From a virus (taxonomy: Duplodnaviria > Caudoviricetes), in the IMG/VR virus record IMGVR_UViG_3300010998_000005, positions 14,095 to 78,094 of that record: 64,000 nt of DNA; one strand, written 5' to 3'. This document shows, one piece after another, positions 4,872-17,163 of this stretch; within the stretch, counting starts at the first letter, position 1, and every line of letters begins with the position of its first letter. A model generated the notes under the pieces. The model saw only the letters and a list, made by a program, of their open reading frames with translations. It did no database searches and had not been told where the DNA came from. Position numbers and translations under genes: made by a program.

Positions 4872-4946
4872 GGTCGCATCGTCTAATGGTCAGGACTCAA
4901 GATTTTCATTCTTGCGATGGGGTTTCGATTACCCCTGCGACTACCA
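4872..4946 (+). tRNA. tRNA-Glu (TTC), CCA encoded
   Basis: Acceptor GGTCGCA/TGCGACT, anticodon arm CAAGA-TTTTCAT-TCTTG, T-arm GGGGT-TTCGATT-ACCCC, 3' ACCA. Confidence 0.95.
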
Positions 4947-6383: not shown

Positions 6384-6788
6384 ATGAATAAGAAACCGAA
6401 ATTCTACATTAAGAACGCAAAGGGCAGATACGAGGAATACAAAGAACCCGTACAAGACTACGACAACAAGTTATACCGTAAAGTGGGTAACAGATATGAG
6501 CCTTGCGATATGCTTGTAACGCAAAGTTTAAGCGAGGGTGTGTGGGTAGTGACCAAGCATAAAAGCAGTAAGTCCTATGCAAGCGGAAAATATCTTTTGG
6601 AAAACTTCATGTGCCTAAAGGCGAGTGACATTCAAGAAGTATCGTTGGCAAAGTTAGGCGGTATGGAGAAGTTAGCACACTATCTATCGCAACATTGGGA
6701 TGAGTTACCTACAAACGCAAGCCAATACGAGCGATGTCAAGCGATAGTAGGGTTGTTGTTCAAGTACGAAAATCACAACGAAAGTTAA
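6384..6788 (+). CDS. Hypothetical protein
   Basis: ORF track, co-directional within the operon. Confidence 0.7.
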   Translation: MNKKPKFYIKNAKGRYEEYKEPVQDYDNKLYRKVGNRYEPCDMLVTQSLSEGVWVVTKHKSSKSYASGKYLLENFMCLKASDIQEVSLAKLGGMEKLAHYLSQHWDELPTNASQYERCQAIVGLLFKYENHNES

Positions 6789-6943
6789 AATTTTGGTGTA
6801 TTCAAATTCTTTTCGTAACTTTGCACAAGAATTAGTTGAAAGTGGTGTGCGAGACCGCTAATGACAATACTTATAGCCCCTTTCGTGTAGGTGATACTCG
6901 CACTATCCCTACCGATTGGGGCGTTTTATTTGGAAAATGTAAA

Positions 6944-7786
6944 ATGGAATATACGAAAGATAACCCACTTAAAGTAATAACCCTTTGCAGTGGTTATGAT
7001 AGTCAGTGCCTCGCCCTGAATAGATTAAAAGGGTGTTATCCCGATTTCGACTATGAATTAGTTGCTTGGTCTGAGTTTGACCCCGAAAGCAAAGCATCGC
7101 TGGAGAAGCAGCCTGCGGTTATAGCACATAATGCCTTATTCCCACAATGGAAAGACCGCAATCTTGGCGATATGACTAAAATAGAGTGGAATAAACTAAA
7201 TCTGCAATGCGACTTATTGTTTTATAGTACTCCATGCCAGAGTATTTCCGCGGCAGGACTGCAACACGGATTTGTTGAGAGTAGCGGTACACGTTCAAGC
7301 ATTATCTGGAACGTGCGTGATGCAGTAATAGCACTAAAACCAAAATTCCTATGCCTTGAAAATGTTAAAGCAATGGTGTCAGGCAAGTTCGTGGGAATGT
7401 TTAATCTGTGGCAGAGAGAGTTGGAAAAACTCGGCTATGCTAACTTTGCACAAGTCCTTAATTCTAAAGACTACGGCGTACCACAAAACAGAGAGCGTAT
7501 ATTCCTCGTTTCAATAAGGATTGACAATGAGAATGATTACCCTAAGTATTATTTCCCACAGCCTTTCCGTTTGGAAAAGAAACTCAAAGATGTGTTAGAG
7601 GACAATGTGGACGAGAAGTATTACCTGAGTGATGAAAGGGTGCAGGGTTTAATGGCAAGTACGGAGAAAGAGCAGGAGCGTGGAAATGGCTTTGCGTGGA
7701 ATCCGACAGATGGCAGCGGTGTTGCTTGCACCATTCAGACGACACAGAACAGGAAAACGGATAATTACTTGTTTGATGAACAATAA
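6944..7786 (+). CDS. C5-cytosine DNA methyltransferase, N-terminal catalytic part (motifs I-VIII)
   Basis: Motif I TLCSGYD, catalytic STPCQ, motif VI ENV, motif VIII DYGVPQNRERIF; motifs IX-X are missing. Probable start ATG 6944. Confidence 0.9.
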   Translation: MEYTKDNPLKVITLCSGYDSQCLALNRLKGCYPDFDYELVAWSEFDPESKASLEKQPAVIAHNALFPQWKDRNLGDMTKIEWNKLNLQCDLLFYSTPCQSISAAGLQHGFVESSGTRSSIIWNVRDAVIALKPKFLCLENVKAMVSGKFVGMFNLWQRELEKLGYANFAQVLNSKDYGVPQNRERIFLVSIRIDNENDYPKYYFPQPFRLEKKLKDVLEDNVDEKYYLSDERVQGLMASTEKEQERGNGFAWNPTDGSGVACTIQTTQNRKTDNYLFDEQ

Positions 7787-7971
7787 AATTACCCCCCCAG
7801 AGGTGGATATGCGAACAGCGGATACCGACACCGCAGACAAAGGATGGTTGTTGTCCTGCGTTGACAGCGACATACGATTATGCGAGTTTTGCGAATATGT
7901 TTAGCGTGGGTCATTATCCAAGGATGGGTGTAATAGAGATAGGTCATTATGAAGAAGTTTATACCGATTAA
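7776..7971 (+). CDS. MTase variable-region cassette 1 (frame broken at C7 tract 7792-7798)
   Basis: With C6 it reads MNNKITPQRWICEQRIPTPQTKDGCCPALTATYDYASFANMFSVGHYPRMGVIEI... Confidence 0.6.
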
Positions 7972-8134
7972 CACGGACGCTGATGGTAATGCAAAGACTA
8001 TTTTGGCTTGTTGTTATAAATTTGGTTTTTCAGCCTTGTTGAATTGGGAAGGTTCAACAATGACTTGCGTAGGTGTGGTACAAGATGAAGAAACTGACCG
8101 AAGGAATCCGAATGAAGAAGATACTTGTTTATGA
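7949..8134 (+). CDS. MTase variable-region cassette 2
   Basis: MKKFIPINTDADGNAKTILACCYK...TCVGVVQDEE. Confidence 0.65.
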   Translation: MKKFIPINTDADGNAKTILACCYKFGFSALLNWEGSTMTCVGVVQDEETDRRNPNEEDTCL

Positions 8135-8320
8135 TGATTATAATTCTGTTCTACCCCCCCCAATAAGCAGGGGGTTATAGGAACGATAACGCCACAATTC
8201 GGCAACTCTACATTAAGAAATGGCTGGAAAATAATAGAAGTATATGAAGAAGAAAGCGACAGGCGGTGTGCGCCTTGCGAAGATGATACACAAGGTAAAC
8301 AAGCCTTATTTGTGGATTGA
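8085..8320 (+). CDS. MTase variable-region cassette 3 (frame broken at C8 tract 8154-8161)
   Basis: With C9 it reads ...MKKILVYDDYNSVLPPPNKQGVIGTITPQFGNSTLRNGWKIIEVYEE... Confidence 0.6.
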
Positions 8321-8414
8321 CACTTACAACCAATGTGTAAGTGACATTGCCGGAACGATAAAAGCGAGAATAAATAGTAATAATATGTATTATGTAAGTG
8401 TACCAAATGGCTAA
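8244..8414 (+). CDS. MTase variable-region cassette 4
   Basis: Manual translation MKKKATGGVRLAKMIHKVNKPYLWIDTYNQCVSDIAGTIKARINSNNMYYVSVPNG*. Confidence 0.65.
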   Translation: MKKKATGGVRLAKMIHKVNKPYLWIDTYNQCVSDIAGTIKARINSNNMYYVSVPNG

Positions 8415-8595
8415 ACAAGCATACGGACTCGGACGCTCTCGCAGTAGCAGTGGGAAAGGTGATATTGTAAATTGGCATCTTAATCCTTACGTCAACTGCA
8501 TCCACACTCTTGTAGGTGGAGGGTGGAAAACGATGGAAGTCTTAATTGTAGAAGTTTATGATGATACTGACTTGTGCGATAAGAGGAAGGAGTGA
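8407..8595 (+). CDS. MTase variable-region cassette 5
   Basis: MAKQAYGLGRSR...YVNCIHTLVGGGWKTMEVLIVEVYDD. Confidence 0.65.
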   Translation: MAKQAYGLGRSRSSSGKGDIVNWHLNPYVNCIHTLVGGGWKTMEVLIVEVYDDTDLCDKRKE

Positions 8596-8728
8596 TGGCG
8601 AGTGGCATTCGTCCGACCATAGCCAGAGGTTAGAAGTCGGCGGTGACATAGCTAATTCGATAACGTCTGTAAGCAAGAACAGTTTAATACTGATAGTTAA
8701 TGAAGATAGTAAAAGCGATAGGTCGTGA
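8558..8728 (+). CDS. MTase variable-region cassette 6
   Basis: Manual translation MMILTCAIRGRSDGEWHSSDHSQRLEVGGDIANSITSVSKNSLILIVNEDSKSDRS*. Confidence 0.65.
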   Translation: MMILTCAIRGRSDGEWHSSDHSQRLEVGGDIANSITSVSKNSLILIVNEDSKSDRS

Positions 8729-8882
8729 AAGGACGGAAGAGGAAAAGAGACGTAGGCATTTGTATGGTGACAAAGGGGCAAGGTTCTCTAAAGGTAAGCA
8801 GTTATGCCTACTTGGTGATATAATAGGAGCGATAACGACTTTATGCACAAAAGACAACTTGATATGCGAGATAGAATTATAA
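8700..8882 (+). CDS. MTase variable-region cassette 7
   Basis: MKIVKAIGRERTEEEKRRR...DIIGAITTLCTKDNLICEIEL. Confidence 0.65.
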   Translation: MKIVKAIGRERTEEEKRRRHLYGDKGARFSKGKQLCLLGDIIGAITTLCTKDNLICEIEL

Positions 8883-9044
8883 AATTAGGGTACTATATAA
8901 AGCCCAACCGAAAGAATCCGAGCAAGGGTGTGGTGTATAGCATTGAAGGCATTGCACCTTGTATGTGCGATTTTTCTGGGGGGGGGTAATTTAGTGCCGA
9001 CAATAGTAGTAAAAGATGAACGGGAAAGTAAAGAAACTGTTTAA
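8864..9044 (+). CDS. MTase variable-region cassette 8 (G9 tract 8978-8986 places TAA in frame)
   Basis: MRDRIIKLGYYIKPNRKNPSKGVVYSIEGIAPCMCDFSGGG*; with G8 it continues GNLVPTIVVKDE... Confidence 0.6.
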
Positions 9045-9158
9045 CATCTACGGCTTTGATGGCGGCAACTTCGCAGGGAATGTGTACGACCCTGAATATA
9101 TCAGTCCTGCCCTCAGCACAATGGGGGGGGTAATCAGCAACCTTTAATAATTACAGAT
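9016..9158 (+). CDS. MTase variable-region cassette 9 (G8 tract 9123-9130; G9 would fuse it to the C-terminal gene)
   Basis: MNGKVKKLFNIYGFDGGNFAGNVYDPEYISPALSTMGG; with one extra G it reads GNQQPLIITDMEQKQK... in frame with 9159. Confidence 0.65.
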
Positions 9159-9431
9159 ATGGAACAGAAACAAAAAATCACCTTGCCTAAAGAATTAGAG
9201 GGCAAGAAGTTTAGAATCAGAAAACTTACTCCGAGAGAATGCGGACGTTTGCAAGATGTGGATGATAAAGACATTGACATCATCGAGAACGCAGGTTTGA
9301 GTAATTCAGCAATGTATAAATTGTACGGGAATAGTATAACTTTATCGGTCTTATTTTTCATTTTTGAAGAATTATTTATACCTTTGCACCCGAAAAGGGG
9401 CAAAGAGCCTATTCAATTATTATTATTTTGA
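9159..9431 (+). CDS. C5-cytosine DNA methyltransferase, C-terminal part (motifs IX-X)
   Basis: RIRKLTPRECGRLQ (motif IX) and YKLYGNSI (motif X). Confidence 0.85.
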   Translation: MEQKQKITLPKELEGKKFRIRKLTPRECGRLQDVDDKDIDIIENAGLSNSAMYKLYGNSITLSVLFFIFEELFIPLHPKRGKEPIQLLLF

Positions 9432-9432
9432 T

Positions 9433-10728
9433 ATGAGAAAGGAAAAAGTAATTCAGATGGATTTAGATGGAAACTACATTTCCGTCTTTGAAAGTGCAGT
9501 TGCTGCTTCTAAAGCATTAGGAGTTGGTTGTGGTAACATAAGTTTATGTTGTCGTGGACTTGCGGACAGAGTAAAAAATTATCGTTTTAGGTATGTTGAT
9601 GATGTACTAAACGAAAAAGCCGTGAAAATTCGACAAGTACGACACAACAAAGCGTCAGATAACCACAAGAAGGCATGGATTCCGAAAAGGAGAAAGGTTT
9701 ATCAATTCTCTTTAGATGCAGTATTGATTGCTTGCTATAAAAACGCAGATATAGCATCAAGTAAAAACGGAATCCCAAAGCATCTAATATTCCAATGCTG
9801 TAATGGGACAATCATCCAAAGCGGAGGGTATATATGGAGTTATAATAACAAAGTAGAATCTGTATTGAAGAACGATATTCCAACTGAACAAGGAGAAGAG
9901 TGGCGTGATGTAGTCGGGTACGAAGGTCTTTATATGGTAAGTTCTTTTGGTCGAGTTTGGAGTTTAAGGAGGAGAACAGAAAAAGTCGGGAATTTGATAG
10001 GTGGATTTATGCTTACAAACCATATAGACAATAGGGGGAGAACGTCCAACACGCTAACAACAAAAAATGGGGAAAAAGTTAATGCAGTAACCGCTCGTCT
10101 TGTTGTAATGTCTTTTATTCCTAATCCAGACAACCTTCCTCAAGTAAACCATAAGGATGAAAATCCATTAAACAACCATGTGGATAATCTTGAATGGTGT
10201 ACGGCTAAATATAATTGCAACTATGGAACAAGGATTGAAAGGATTAAAGAGAAGCAAAACATACCAATACTCCAATACACACTGAATGGTGAATTTGTTG
10301 CAGAATACGCTTCAATGCACATTGCCGCGGATGCTATAAATGCAGATGCAGGACACATTTGTGATTGTTGCTTGGGAAATAGGTCTTATGCCTATGGTTT
10401 CTTTTGGCGTTACAAAGATGATGAAATGTATAATTCTGCCAAAGTAAGGCTGCAAGATAAAATTTCCGCAAGTAAAAAATCGAGAGCAGACAAGTTTACG
10501 GCGAGAGCATTAAATGTAGTACAACTTGATATGAACGGTAAATATATACAGACACATCAGTCAAGTAGGCTTGCAGCGGAAAGAGTTGGAAGTTTCCGAC
10601 CAATGATTATAAATTGTTGCAATGGGAAAATATCAAATGTTAAAGGCTACAAGTTTATGTACGAGCGAGATTTCCGCAAGATGTTCATAGAAACGGAAAA
10701 CGAAAGCCAACAACTAAGTTTATTCTGA
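9433..10728 (+). CDS. HNH homing endonuclease with NUMOD4 and multiple NUMOD1-like DNA-binding repeats
   Basis: EEWRDVVGYEGLYMVSSFGRV (NUMOD4), QVNHKDENPLNNHVDNLEWCT (HNH), four VxQxxLxG...S...A(S/A) repeats. Confidence 0.85.
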   Translation: MRKEKVIQMDLDGNYISVFESAVAASKALGVGCGNISLCCRGLADRVKNYRFRYVDDVLNEKAVKIRQVRHNKASDNHKKAWIPKRRKVYQFSLDAVLIACYKNADIASSKNGIPKHLIFQCCNGTIIQSGGYIWSYNNKVESVLKNDIPTEQGEEWRDVVGYEGLYMVSSFGRVWSLRRRTEKVGNLIGGFMLTNHIDNRGRTSNTLTTKNGEKVNAVTARLVVMSFIPNPDNLPQVNHKDENPLNNHVDNLEWCTAKYNCNYGTRIERIKEKQNIPILQYTLNGEFVAEYASMHIAADAINADAGHICDCCLGNRSYAYGFFWRYKDDEMYNSAKVRLQDKISASKKSRADKFTARALNVVQLDMNGKYIQTHQSSRLAAERVGSFRPMIINCCNGKISNVKGYKFMYERDFRKMFIETENESQQLSLF

Positions 10729-10733
10729 TATAA

Positions 10734-11543
10734 ATGGGAGAAAGTATGATTGAACTTGACCATATCTATTGTGAAGATTGTTTAATCGGCATGAAGCGGA
10801 TTCCTGACGGGAGCGTGGATGCGGTGATTTGCGATTTGCCGTATGGGACAACCGCCTGCGCCTGGGACTCCGTGATACCCTTCGACAAGTTGTGGGAGCA
10901 GTACCGACGTATCTGCAAAACAAATGCTCCGATAGTGCTGTTTGGCATAGAGCCATTTACGGCGGCTCTCATTATGTCGAATGTAAAGGAGTTTAGGGAG
11001 AAATTAACATGGGAAAAACATAAACCGAGTAATATTGGCAATGCAAAGTACATGCACCTAAAATATTCGGAAGACATTGTAGTATTCTCCCGTGGAAAAT
11101 GCACTTTTAATCCTCAAATGCAACCAAGAATAAGCGACAGAGTAAGAGAGGCGCAAAAAGGGAACAGTAAGCAATGGCGTAGTAATCGCAAGGAAACTGG
11201 CGAAGTGTCTTTTGCAACGCAATATGAGCCGCGAGATTGGAACTCATTTGATGCTGATAAGAAATACCCAGGAAATGTATTTTATTTCCCAGCCGTTGTT
11301 TCTAATTCCCACGAGAAATGCGACCACCCCACCCAGAAGCCCGTTGACCTGCTGCGCTATCTCGTGCTGACCTACACCAACGAGGGCGACACGGTGCTCG
11401 ACAACTGCATGGGCAGCGGCACGACGGCCATCGCCTGTATCAAGGAAAAGCGGCACTTTTTAGGATTCGAGCTGAATGAAGATTATTACAAGAAAGCAAT
11501 CAAGAGAATAGAAGTTGAAAAATCTCAATTAACGCTATTTTGA
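10734..11543 (+). CDS. N4-cytosine/N6-adenine DNA methyltransferase (beta class)
   Basis: CDLPYG catalytic motif, HPTQKPVDLL and LDNCMGSGTTAIA SAM-binding motif. Confidence 0.9.
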   Translation: MGESMIELDHIYCEDCLIGMKRIPDGSVDAVICDLPYGTTACAWDSVIPFDKLWEQYRRICKTNAPIVLFGIEPFTAALIMSNVKEFREKLTWEKHKPSNIGNAKYMHLKYSEDIVVFSRGKCTFNPQMQPRISDRVREAQKGNSKQWRSNRKETGEVSFATQYEPRDWNSFDADKKYPGNVFYFPAVVSNSHEKCDHPTQKPVDLLRYLVLTYTNEGDTVLDNCMGSGTTAIACIKEKRHFLGFELNEDYYKKAIKRIEVEKSQLTLF

Positions 11544-11544
11544 C

Positions 11545-12108
11545 ATGAAAGAAGAATGGAAAGAAATAGATGGTCATAGTGGGTACATGGTATCTAACTA
11601 TGGAAACATAAAAAGCCTGTCATTTAACAAGACTGGTGTAGAGAAAAAACTTACACCATGCGTTGATAAGAAAGGCTACCTTTTTGTGTGTCTTCACGGT
11701 AAACAATTAAGGGTACATAGACTTGTGGCATTAGCATTTATACCAAAAGTTAATGGAAAAGAACTAATCAACCACATCAATGAGGATAAACAGAATAATG
11801 CCGTATGGAATTTAGAGTGGTGTACCGCATCTTATAATCTTAATTACAATGGTAATAGAGAAAGGATTTCCAAGAAGCACAAAAAGAAAGTGTATGCTTA
11901 TAAAGATAAAGAGTTATTTCAATCTTTCGACAGTATAACAGAAGCCGCTAAAGCGTTCGGTGTTTCTATCAATAATATATCTTCGTGTTTACACGGAAGA
12001 AAGAAACAAGCATGTGGGTGTGAATGGTCATTCGAGTTGAACAAGGAATACTACGACAAAGCCATGAAGCGCATCGACAACGAACGCCGACAACTGACAT
12101 TATTTTAA
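11545..12108 (+). CDS. NUMOD4-HNH-NUMOD1 homing endonuclease carrying an MTase-derived C-terminal tail
   Basis: EEWKEIDGHSGYMVSNYG, RVHRLVALAF, INHINEDKQNNAVWNLEWCT; tail FELNKEYYDKAMKRIDNERRQLTLF. Confidence 0.85.
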   Translation: MKEEWKEIDGHSGYMVSNYGNIKSLSFNKTGVEKKLTPCVDKKGYLFVCLHGKQLRVHRLVALAFIPKVNGKELINHINEDKQNNAVWNLEWCTASYNLNYNGNRERISKKHKKKVYAYKDKELFQSFDSITEAAKAFGVSINNISSCLHGRKKQACGCEWSFELNKEYYDKAMKRIDNERRQLTLF

Positions 12109-17082: not shown

Positions 17083-17154
17083 TGGCGTATGGTGTAGCGG
17101 TAGTCACATTTGCCTTTGGAGCAAATAGCCCAAGTTCAAATCTTGGTACGCCAA
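17083..17154 (+). tRNA. tRNA-Gln (TTG), CCA not encoded
   Basis: Acceptor TGGCGTA/TACGCCA, anticodon arm TTTGC-CTTTGGA-GCAAA, T-arm CCAAG-TTCAAAT-CTTGG. Confidence 0.92.
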
Positions 17155-17163
17155 CAAAGTTAA

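Follow-up and report, generated by a model that had tools for sequence, protein, structure and literature searches.

A phage C5-methyltransferase locus in which nine small genes, each with its own start codon, lie between a catalytic head and a tail

Multispecific and split cytosine methyltransferases

Temperate Bacillus phages encode multispecific C5-methyltransferases (C5-MTases), M.SPRI, M.Phi3TI, M.Rho11sI and M.H2I, whose single catalytic core carries, between motifs VIII and IX, several target recognition domains (TRDs) in tandem, each of ~40-60 aa (Trautner et al. 1996, cited in PMC12707154). Here we describe a phage locus of the same outline, and both are presumed to guard phage DNA against a wide range of restriction systems. 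The Bacillus phage enzymes hold three to four TRDs, all in one polypeptide, which agrees with what an earlier note on this DNA had said of them. At our locus, tandem modules also lie between motifs VIII and IX, but they occupy separate ORFs instead of one contiguous chain, and there are nine such units here and up to ~20 in relatives. Compared with the Bacillus phage TRDs, these ORFs are also distinct in having their own start codons, in usually lying in another frame and, for some, in containing homopolymer runs.

Split C5-MTases offer a second comparison. In M.AquI, in M.EcoHK31I and in the fragment complementation of M.SssI, as at our locus, the enzyme is split in or near the variable region into chains carrying motifs I-VIII and motifs IX-X (PMC3404938). 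The genes overlap in different frames in both cases, and splits in the variable region are tolerated (PMC3404938). The split enzymes have two chains and one specificity (PMC3404938), whereas here the TRD belongs to neither half and comes in many alternative copies. For a C5-MTase assembled from three pieces there is no experimental precedent: the known cases are natural enzymes of two pieces and complementation between two fragments (PMC3404938).

Two other systems share single features with the locus. Type I HsdS, like the proposed units, is a separate polypeptide that gives specificity to a methyltransferase core, and its genes can be exchanged or shuffled; unlike them, it belongs to an unrelated fold and class (N6-adenine, M2S1) and is a protein of ~400 aa with two TRDs rather than a 50-aa module. 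In phasevarions (Type III mod, Type I hsdS/hsdM), as here, a homopolymer in coding sequence sets the frame, and ON/OFF states differ among relatives (PMC7383803). There, one run switches a whole bacterial enzyme, whereas here several runs, as candidate switches, would each gate one module of a phage enzyme (PMC7383803). In the literature, we found no paper describing an architecture of separately encoded TRD mini-genes.

A catalytic head, an array of small units and a tail

The window, a 64-kb stretch of DNA from a gut or rumen phage, encodes a C5-MTase as a catalytic head (alpha), a tail (beta) and nine tiny, separately started genes between them:

4872-4946: tRNA-Glu(UUC) gene, 2 kb upstream of the locus, with a normal 7-nt anticodon loop
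6836..7786, + strand: alpha gene, N-half of the C5-MTase, with motifs I-VIII, a conserved variable-region start and one in-chain TRD-like unit (ACTIQT...NYLF)
7776..7971, + strand: unit 1 (PP...CPALTA...VIEI), ATG in frame 0, body in frame 1 past a C7 run; OFF as sequenced
7949..8134, + strand: unit 2 (MKKFIPINTD...AKTILA...VGVV), 61 aa, intact; 23-nt overlap with unit 1, +1 frame
8112..8320, + strand: unit 3 (MKKILVYDDYNS...IGTITP...IIEV), ATG in frame 0 (another ATG at 8085), body in frame 2 past a C8 run; OFF
8244..8414, + strand: unit 4 (MKKKATGG...AGTIKA...YVSV), 56 aa, intact
8407..8595, + strand: unit 5 (MAKQAYGLGRS...NCIHTL...LIVEV), 62 aa, intact; homologs in 11 loci
8558..8728, + strand: unit 6 (MMILTCAIRGRS...ANSITS...LILIV), 56 aa, intact
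8700..8882, + strand: unit 7 (MKIVKAIGRERTEEE...GAITTL...LICEI), 60 aa, intact
8864..9044, + strand: unit 8 (MRDRIIKLGYYIKPN...APCMCD, with TIVV past a G9 run), start ATG 8864 or 8843; OFF as sequenced
9016..9147, + strand: unit 9 (MNGKVKKLFNIYGF...SPALST), closing strand LIIT past a G8 run and in the beta frame; OFF as sequenced
9159..9431, + strand: beta gene, with N-terminal strand KKFRIRKL, motif IX TPRECGRLQ, motif X GNSI and C-terminal QLLLF

The alpha ORF (6836-7783) matches PF00145 positions 2-227 (E 4.5e-42), and its translation carries STPCQSIS (the catalytic Pro-Cys of motif IV), LENV (ENV, motif VI) and QNRER (QxRxR, motif VIII). The beta ORF (9159-9428) matches positions 265-322 (E 1.4e-7). 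The catalytic gene ends at 7786 and the motif IX-X gene lies at 9159, as had been noted. Judging from the consensus start of 13 alpha relatives, MEYxKxxPL, the true start of alpha is likely the ATG at 6941 (MEYTKDNPL). The gene fits an M.AquI-type half, with motifs I-VIII and the proximal variable region, and the best 120 N-half homologs listed (68-81% identity) are truncated in every case, at 238-340 aa. Alpha stops at 7784-7786, and motifs IX-X are encoded 1.4 kb further downstream by a different ORF in a different frame, so that the enzyme is not a single polypeptide. As sequenced, beta has no TRD, and unit 9 would be joined to it only if the run at 9123-9130 had one extra G; the beta chains of four relatives (L006, L008, L011 and L015) consist of a TRD plus motifs IX-X. 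The remaining ORFs of the window are unbroken, the longest encoding 2206 and 1934 aa. The phage's two tRNAs, Glu-UUC and Gln-UUG, are both ordinary, which speaks against quadruplet decoding by a phage tRNA.

All nine unit ATGs reported earlier are present (7776, 7949, 8085, 8244, 8407, 8558, 8700, 8864 and 9016), as is the beta ATG at 9159. In the three-frame translation we located 10/10 of the core strings (ACTIQT to SPALST) and 10/10 of the closing hydrophobic strands (NYLF to LIIT), making ten TRD-like modules at the locus with the alpha tail included. The coding pieces follow the frame path 2 > 0 > [C7] 1 > 2 > 0 > [C8] 2 > 0 > 1 > 2 > 0 > 2 > [G9] 0 > 1 > [G8] 0. Between units, eight junctions are +1, so that the earlier count stands; one further junction is -1 (8700 to 8864, a 19-nt overlap) and one is in frame (the last unit into 9159). 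Across the window and its relatives, 45 of 64 junctions are +1, 12 are -1 (six of them ATGA overlaps) and 7 consist of an in-frame stop plus a restart.

The enrichment of ATG at unit starts exceeds chance. When the arrays of 15 loci are cut into stop-to-stop segments and those of 38 aa or more are kept, an ATG lies within 6 codons of the preceding stop in 99/186 segments on the + strand and in 20/201 on the - strand. Among the supported segments, the ATG follows the upstream stop by no more than 6 codons in 79 and immediately precedes the conserved part in another 14; nearly all intact units start with ATG. These start codons lie, in xAT-GAx codons, where the unit before ends in an acidic C-terminal tail. 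Where TAT-GAA has become TTT-GAA (L042) or TAC-GAA (L001 and L006), a TTG or GTG start is found close by. The arrangement is not always overlapping: the unit genes of L045 are separated by gaps of 3-7 nt, and in relatives with a permuted core the unit genes flank a complete core ORF on both sides. Shine-Dalgarno sequences are absent at the unit starts, which is uninformative because the long genes of this phage, with their A-rich leaders, also lack them. Internal promoters and terminators in the locus did not rise above shuffle level.

In a blastn search of a phage collection, the sole match was to methylases of Clostridioides phages, over 60 nt and at the level of a motif. Related phage loci with a head, an array and a tail number 15 and hold 3 to ~20 units each (motif IX was located in them by HMM), and the order and content of their units vary. 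Every unit of the window has homologs at 40-75% identity in several of these loci, in its own frame, while off-frame segments have almost none. Own-frame dN is 0.17-0.47, with dS at least 0.9 or saturated, compared to omega mostly 0.7-2.6 in shifted frames (the comparison of the C-part with L014 was excluded from this set). For single units, unit 2 has homologs in 6 loci (dN 0.35, dS 2.3), unit 4 is 74% identical to its counterparts in L009 and L011 (dN 0.24, dS 2.4, omega 0.10) and unit 7 is 75% identical to that in L014 (dN 0.17-0.26).

The modules are, by sequence homology, TRDs like those of single-chain and two-chain C5-MTases. Members of the unit-6 family form 371 free-standing clusters and 363 clusters of longer homologs, and the family occurs both in TRD+IX-X proteins of ~150 aa and, between motifs VIII and IX, inside PF00145 proteins of 465-751 aa. 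In Dulem virus 40 (PP511379.1), head and tail are homologous to those described here, and identical module types stand at the same position; unlike our locus, it has no mini-genes, its seven modules being concatenated in frame ahead of motifs IX-X in a chain of 374 aa. Unit 2 matches residues 2-23 of that chain. Single units on their own gave no match in Pfam, where five were searched, or among PDB sequences, and a natural TRD+IX-X chain used as a query likewise matched no PDB sequence. The earlier note had proposed a modular specificity library rather than random decay, and had asked whether layout, order and content vary among relatives at dN/dS below 1. The layout proves to be kept while order and content vary, and dN/dS is far below 1. 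The specificity library is supported because the layout is conserved across the clade and the units are under purifying selection in their own frames and homologous to embedded TRDs.

We also predicted the complex of both halves with a unit, as the earlier note had suggested. The alpha + beta + unit 6 model scores 0.70 compared to 0.21 for the best of 3 controls, although this score may reflect the model's memory of, or resemblance to, solved single-chain (monomeric) C5-MTase folds. That mark is attained by 58/80 solved complexes and 2/110 mismatched pairs. Agreement between runs extends to 76% of contacts or more, with partner pLDDT of at least 64. In the predicted complex, unit 6 is seated between alpha and beta, and its residues 43-48 pair with residues 16-23 of beta.

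Homopolymer runs inside four units

The 64-kb window holds four G/C runs of at least 7 nt, and all four lie inside the 1.4-kb array, where they set the coding frame as in phase-variable loci:

7792..7798, + strand: C7 homopolymer run in unit 1
8154..8161, + strand: C8 homopolymer run in unit 3
8978..8986, + strand: G9 homopolymer run in unit 8
9123..9130, + strand: G8 homopolymer run in unit 9

In these units, the frame of the ATG is not that of the core or closing strand, and only the homopolymer bridges the two. The earlier account of the units overlooked these breaks: its ATGs, cores and strands are real, but four of its nine mini-ORFs (7776, 8085/8112, 8864 and 9016) are truncated as written. 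The ATG it gave for the third unit, 8085, is likewise present, but homologs in L008, L044 and L021 begin at the second ATG, 8112. At each of the four runs, a one-base change brings back a full-length homologous unit. Deleting one C from unit 1 gives a full-length match, and C8 and C6 runs occupy the equivalent place in its homologs in L042 and L034, respectively. Inserting one C into unit 3 gives a 54-aa match to L015, and the homolog of this unit in L008 is fused in frame to motifs IX-X. Deleting one G from unit 8 gives a 49-aa match to L011, and inserting one G into unit 9 gives a 101-aa match to L006, whose counterpart carries a G10 run in frame with motifs IX-X and is fused to them.

Runs of 7-9 nt fall at Gly-Gly-Gly or Pro-Pro-Pro positions, and 4/4 are out of frame here. 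Across loci, ~13 runs are in frame and ~29 out, near the 1:2 expected for freely slipping tracts. The runs vary between relatives: unit 5 encodes Gly-Gly-Gly as GGT GGA GGG where its L001 counterpart has a G10 run, and L009, L010, L011 and L016 have full ladders free of any G/C run of at least 6 nt, with one such run each in L021 and L034. Between L001 and L006 (87-92% identical), run length and frame are unlike at 3/4 shared runs; these differences could be fixed, since they are seen between two phages rather than inside one population. A flank-pattern search of viral and metagenome contigs for polymorphic copies of the G9 run gave no match, and the only other contig with an identical N-half, L049 (JGI 3300011005), is identical across 6.9 kb. 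The searches turned up no second, near-identical copy of this genome. That all four runs are OFF in this genome would also fit ongoing loss of function.

Possible workings of the array

We consider it probable, if well short of assured, that the locus encodes separately translated recognition subunits of a multi-chain, multi-specificity C5-MTase, some of them gated by slippage-prone runs. Alpha (6941-7786) holds the catalytic motifs I-VIII together with a recognition module of its own, beta (9159-9431) holds motifs IX-X, and each of the nine genes between, of ~45-62 aa, encodes one TRD and has its own start codon. With start codons lying inside the preceding unit's tail, the units are therefore probably translated in a coupled manner along one mRNA. 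Each mini-protein may then dock in trans between alpha and beta, where pairing of its final hydrophobic strand with the one before motif IX would restore the small domain of an ordinary C5-MTase. A mixture of cores holding TRDs of distinct specificities would methylate many targets and thereby shield phage DNA from many host restriction systems; one core probably marks many sequences and varies the set to escape host restriction. The G/C runs may serve as switches within a population, turning single modules on or off with the rest of the enzyme untouched, which is possible only because the modules are separate genes. Of the three modes put forward earlier, the one that fits the data is the first, in which coupled translation yields mini-proteins for insertion into a split enzyme.

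An alternative that strikes us as unlikely is that a module functions only when joined to alpha or beta; the free mini-ORFs would then be expressed in some other role, for example as regulators or competitors of the core, or would be recently detached remnants. The in-chain TRD-like tail of alpha, which could compete with free units, is in line with this, as are the TRD that beta acquires when the G8 run is in frame and the restriction of known natural split C5-MTases to two chains (PMC3404938). However, purifying selection on the free units is as strong as on the N-half, arrays of up to ~20 free units are retained across diverged phages, and unit 6 is modelled at the canonical TRD position with a strand paired to beta.

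Poorer still are the prospects of a silent store of TRD cassettes, each active only once deletion or recombination fuses it in frame to the head or tail, the third of the earlier modes. Unit order and content are unlike among relatives, terminal units are fused to alpha or beta in L006, L008, L011 and L015, and junction sequences amount to short shared homologies, all as such a store might leave them. Yet silent cassettes would have no need of the start codon and nearby stop that each unit retains, free-standing homologs annotated as genes run into the hundreds and no rearranged near-identical variant occurs among the relatives. The array itself offered this mode no supporting feature: it contains no direct or inverted repeats of at least 17 nt beyond trivial complementarity between C-runs and G-runs, and no recombinase adjoins it.

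We think it very unlikely that programmed +1 frameshifting or quadruplet decoding at every junction yields one long, multispecific SPR-like chain, which was the second mode. The +1 step at 70% of junctions, their stereotyped sequence (TATGAAAC / TATGAAGA), the single-chain versions known for the same modules and the upstream tRNA-Glu(UUC) gene would all suit such a ladder. It is contradicted by the -1 junctions, including ATGA overlaps, by the in-frame stops with restart and by the spaced unit genes of L045. The start codon, moreover, is the conserved element, with TTG or GTG substituting if it is lost. GAA-G words are frequent in all genes, and the tRNA-Glu anticodon loop is of normal length. 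Nine or more successive shifts would each require near-100% efficiency.

That the locus is a pseudogenised multispecific MTase, or its breaks homopolymer or assembly errors, is scarcely credible: four breaks do fall at homopolymer runs, all out of frame, but the frame changes between units lie away from homopolymers and recur in 15 independently assembled loci, four loci have full ladders free of such runs, dN/dS is far below 1 with the rest of the genome intact, and the ~1:2 ratio of in-frame to out-of-frame runs across relatives is unlike that of rare errors.

If the units are separately translated subunits, a bolder form of that reading, which we hold only tentatively, is phase-variable combinatorial bet-hedging. 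A core, perhaps anchored to the sliding clamp, would take free ~50-aa subunits in trans, and the runs would switch each independently, so that a single phage lineage would keep yielding progeny with up to 2^n methylation patterns. Such patterns, if they exist, would strike a balance between escape from classical restriction and attack by methylation-dependent nucleases. Were free 50-aa TRDs to dock on a shared core, C5-MTase specificity would come from an exchangeable subunit, as is known for Type I systems and not for C5-MTases. This could explain how gut and rumen phages handle very diverse host restriction systems, would be a case, in a phage, of phase variation module by module and would make the hundreds of small modules a natural parts list for programmable cytosine methylation. 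The locus type also bears on annotation, as such loci are currently called a truncated methylase plus hypothetical proteins, or pseudogenes.

The methyltransferase locus and its relatives

The phage record that holds the window is complete (78 kb, with terminal repeats), and two of the window's ORFs are both ends of one C5 DNA methyltransferase:

6836-7786, + strand: head (alpha, or N-half), C5 DNA methyltransferase N-terminal end; PF00145 positions 2-227, E 4.5e-42
9159-9431, + strand: tail (beta), C5 DNA methyltransferase C-terminal end; PF00145 positions 265-322

Between them lie nine small ORFs, the units, which we name by ATG position (7776 to 9016). The unit ATGs described in the earlier note are all present in the window sequence, and its core strings and closing strands were all recovered by three-frame translation. 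Its count of eight +1 junctions also holds for the inter-unit junctions; the single -1 junction is from 8700 to 8864, and the tail gene shares the frame of the last unit. Four frame changes within units had gone unmentioned, at C7 (7792), C8 (8154), G9 (8978) and G8 (9123), and these are the only G/C runs of at least 7 nt in the 64 kb. Along the coding path the frame order is 2 > 0 > 1 > 2 > 0 > 2 > 0 > 1 > 2 > 0 > 2 > 0 > 1 > 0.

The array is neither artefact nor decay. Genes elsewhere in the window are unbroken, two of them ORFs of 2206 and 1934 aa. For the N-half, the best 120 relatives in the databases share 68-81% identity and span 238-340 aa, which means that every one is truncated in the variable region. 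Each of the 15 related loci, taken from assemblies in IMG/VR, ENA and Logan, has a head, a small-ORF array of 3 to about 20 units, and a tail. L009, L010, L011 and L016 are clean ladders although they lack any G/C run of at least 6 nt, and L021 and L034 are clean ladders with one such run each. Most junctions in the latter two are stereotyped, reading ...V-x-Y-E-T-x-stop with the next ATG within TAT-GAA and an overlap of 11 or 14 nt. Each window unit has own-frame homologs in several loci at 40-75% amino-acid identity, and off-frame segments of the array have almost none. The earlier claim that the region is not random decay is borne out by this retained layout in 15 loci and by purifying-type selection on each unit frame: dN is 0.17-0.47 with dS at least 0.9 or saturated, and omega, where computable, is 0.10-0.24, below 1, the outcome that the earlier note had proposed to test for among relatives. 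Selection on the N-half is similar (dN 0.16), and shifted frames mostly give omega of 0.7-2.6.

Three more distant relatives (42-52% identity), L027, L030 and L045 (IMG/VR contigs 3300009958_000025, 3300021256_000066 and 3300028048_000166), carry a complete single-chain core ORF that is circularly permuted (IX-X-I...VIII), with target-recognition domain (TRD) mini-genes on either side. The L045 units are ordinary non-overlapping genes with gaps of 3-7 nt, all terminating in ...YG(Q/E)(P/T)IKF.

Units as candidate TRDs of a split enzyme

Pfam searches with single units gave no match. Dulem virus 40, from lemur faeces (PP511379.1 45859-47799, L050), has a two-gene methylase with a 259-aa head and a 374-aa chain, the latter annotated as Cyt C5 DNA methylase and made up of about seven in-frame modules (TRDs) followed by motifs IX-X.

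Unit types matching the Dulem virus 40 beta chain
Residues 2-23: window unit 7949
Residues 55-83: window unit 8864
Residues 91-136: window unit 8558
Residues 201-233: L016 unit type (relative)
Residues 232-283: L043 unit type (relative)

A profile search with unit 8558 recovered free-standing proteins in 371 clusters, most of them 47-65 aa long, as well as 363 longer proteins, which include ~150-aa TRD+IX-X chains and 465-751-aa full-length PF00145 enzymes where the module sits between motif VIII and motif IX. The last unit is itself joined in frame to motifs IX-X in L006, L008, L011 and L015. Because of these chain matches, module placements and fusions, the units are, by homology, TRDs. The Dulem virus 40 locus offers a ready natural comparator for experiments.

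Complex prediction was given alpha, beta and unit 8558 as three chains (alignments A1, A3 and A2). The best control scored 0.21 and the model 0.70; among 80 solved complexes 58 attain the latter mark, and among 110 mismatched pairs 2 do. Contact agreement among runs was at least 76% and partner pLDDT at least 64. In the model, residues 43-48 of unit 8558, its closing strand, pair with the strand immediately ahead of motif IX (beta residues 16-23), and the N-terminal part of the unit contacts alpha residues 246-279. Monomeric C5-MTases have this topology in their small domain, and the high score may therefore come from the fold having been learned by the model; what the prediction shows is compatibility of the three chains, not binding.

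The earlier proposal of a modular specificity library is supported in the first of its modes, in which translationally coupled mini-proteins would plug as TRDs into a split C5-MTase. In the Bacillus phage multispecific enzymes, TRDs are arrayed within one polypeptide, according to a passage of PMC12707154 citing Trautner 1996. Two-chain C5-MTases occur naturally, examples being M.AquI and M.EcoHK31I, and complementation is seen between C5-MTase fragments whose break falls in the variable region (PMC3404938). Bacteria are known to have phase-variable methyltransferases (e.g. PMC7383803). We searched the literature for C5-MTases with TRDs encoded as free-standing genes or with repeat switches for single TRDs, and found no description of either. 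As predicted here, the locus would be a variation on three known kinds, multispecific, split and phase-variable methyltransferases.

Initiation at units and homopolymer runs

Stop-to-stop segments of 38 aa or more have an early ATG, at most 6 codons past the upstream stop, in 99 of 186 cases on the + strand and in 20 of 201 on the - strand. Among homolog-supported segments, 79 have an early ATG, 14 further ones have an ATG directly ahead of the conserved part, and the rest are head pieces or halves downstream of homopolymer runs. Where the usual TAT-GAA is TTT-GAA (L042) or TAC-GAA (L001 and L006), a TTG or GTG start substitutes. The junctions do not share one direction: 45 are +1, 12 are -1 (six of them classic ATGA overlaps), and seven are an in-frame stop followed by a restart. 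Two phage tRNAs in the window have ordinary 7-nt anticodon loops:

4872-4946: tRNA-Glu(UUC)
17083-17155: tRNA-Gln(UUG)

A +1 frameshift ladder, the second mode of the earlier note, is contradicted by the -1 and stop/restart junctions and by the separate L045 unit genes; these, together with the unit start codons and normal tRNAs, led us to reject it as an explanation of the family. What does account for these sequences is a separate start of translation at every unit, probably coupled to the stop of the one before it. For the third mode, cassettes brought into frame by recombination, neither supporting DNA repeats nor a recombinase was found.

As sequenced, none of the four window runs is spanned by homology, and a one-base change at each (C7-1, C8+1, G9-1, G8+1) restores a full-length unit. 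Run positions are ordinary Gly or Pro codons in other phages; window unit 8407 has GGT GGA GGG at the site of L001's G10. Counted over the 15 loci, in-frame runs number about 13 and out-of-frame runs about 29, which approximates the 1:2 expectation for freely slipping tracts. L001 and L006 (87-92% identical) share four runs, three of which have a different length and frame in the two phages. Units broken in frame at a run keep conserved halves 3' of it. We read the G/C runs as putative contingency switches, which make sense because splitting the TRDs into separate genes would confine frameshift damage to one module, silencing it while sparing motifs IX-X. At the G10 run of L001 (5937) and L006 (4935), all three frames are open for 20-50 codons, one being the unit's own tail and another entering the next unit, which is itself ATG-less; run length there could therefore choose between two module fusions, rather than simple ON/OFF.

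Genes around the methyltransferase tail

Four consecutive window proteins terminate in Q-L-x-L-F-COOH:

9417-9431: MTase tail, IQLLLF
10714-10728: HNH/NUMOD endonuclease, QQLSLF
11529-11543: N6_N4 methylase, SQLTLF
12094-12108: ORF 11545-12108, RQLTLF

In alignment A3, the MTase C-parts of all 11 relatives have this ending too. It matches the bacterial sliding-clamp-binding pentapeptide QL[SD]LF and suggests that these DNA-modifying enzymes may ride on the host clamp. The MTase tail gene is overlapped at its 3' end by the HNH/NUMOD homing-endonuclease ORF (9364-10728). The final 18 residues of this ORF (FRKMFIETENESQQLSLF) are identical to the C-terminal consensus that relatives' MTase tails give, so it looks like an insertion into the end of the tail gene or a product of recombination with it. 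A similar HNH gene lies directly upstream of the head gene in L008. ORF 11545-12108 (187 aa) has a C-terminus close to that of the neighboring N6_N4 methylase, FELN.(D/E)YY.KA.KRI...QLTLF; it may encode another amino-methyltransferase or part of one. In L009, an IS605 OrfB/TnpB (Cas12f-like) gene (6626-7573) lies about 1.5 kb 3' of the methylase array.
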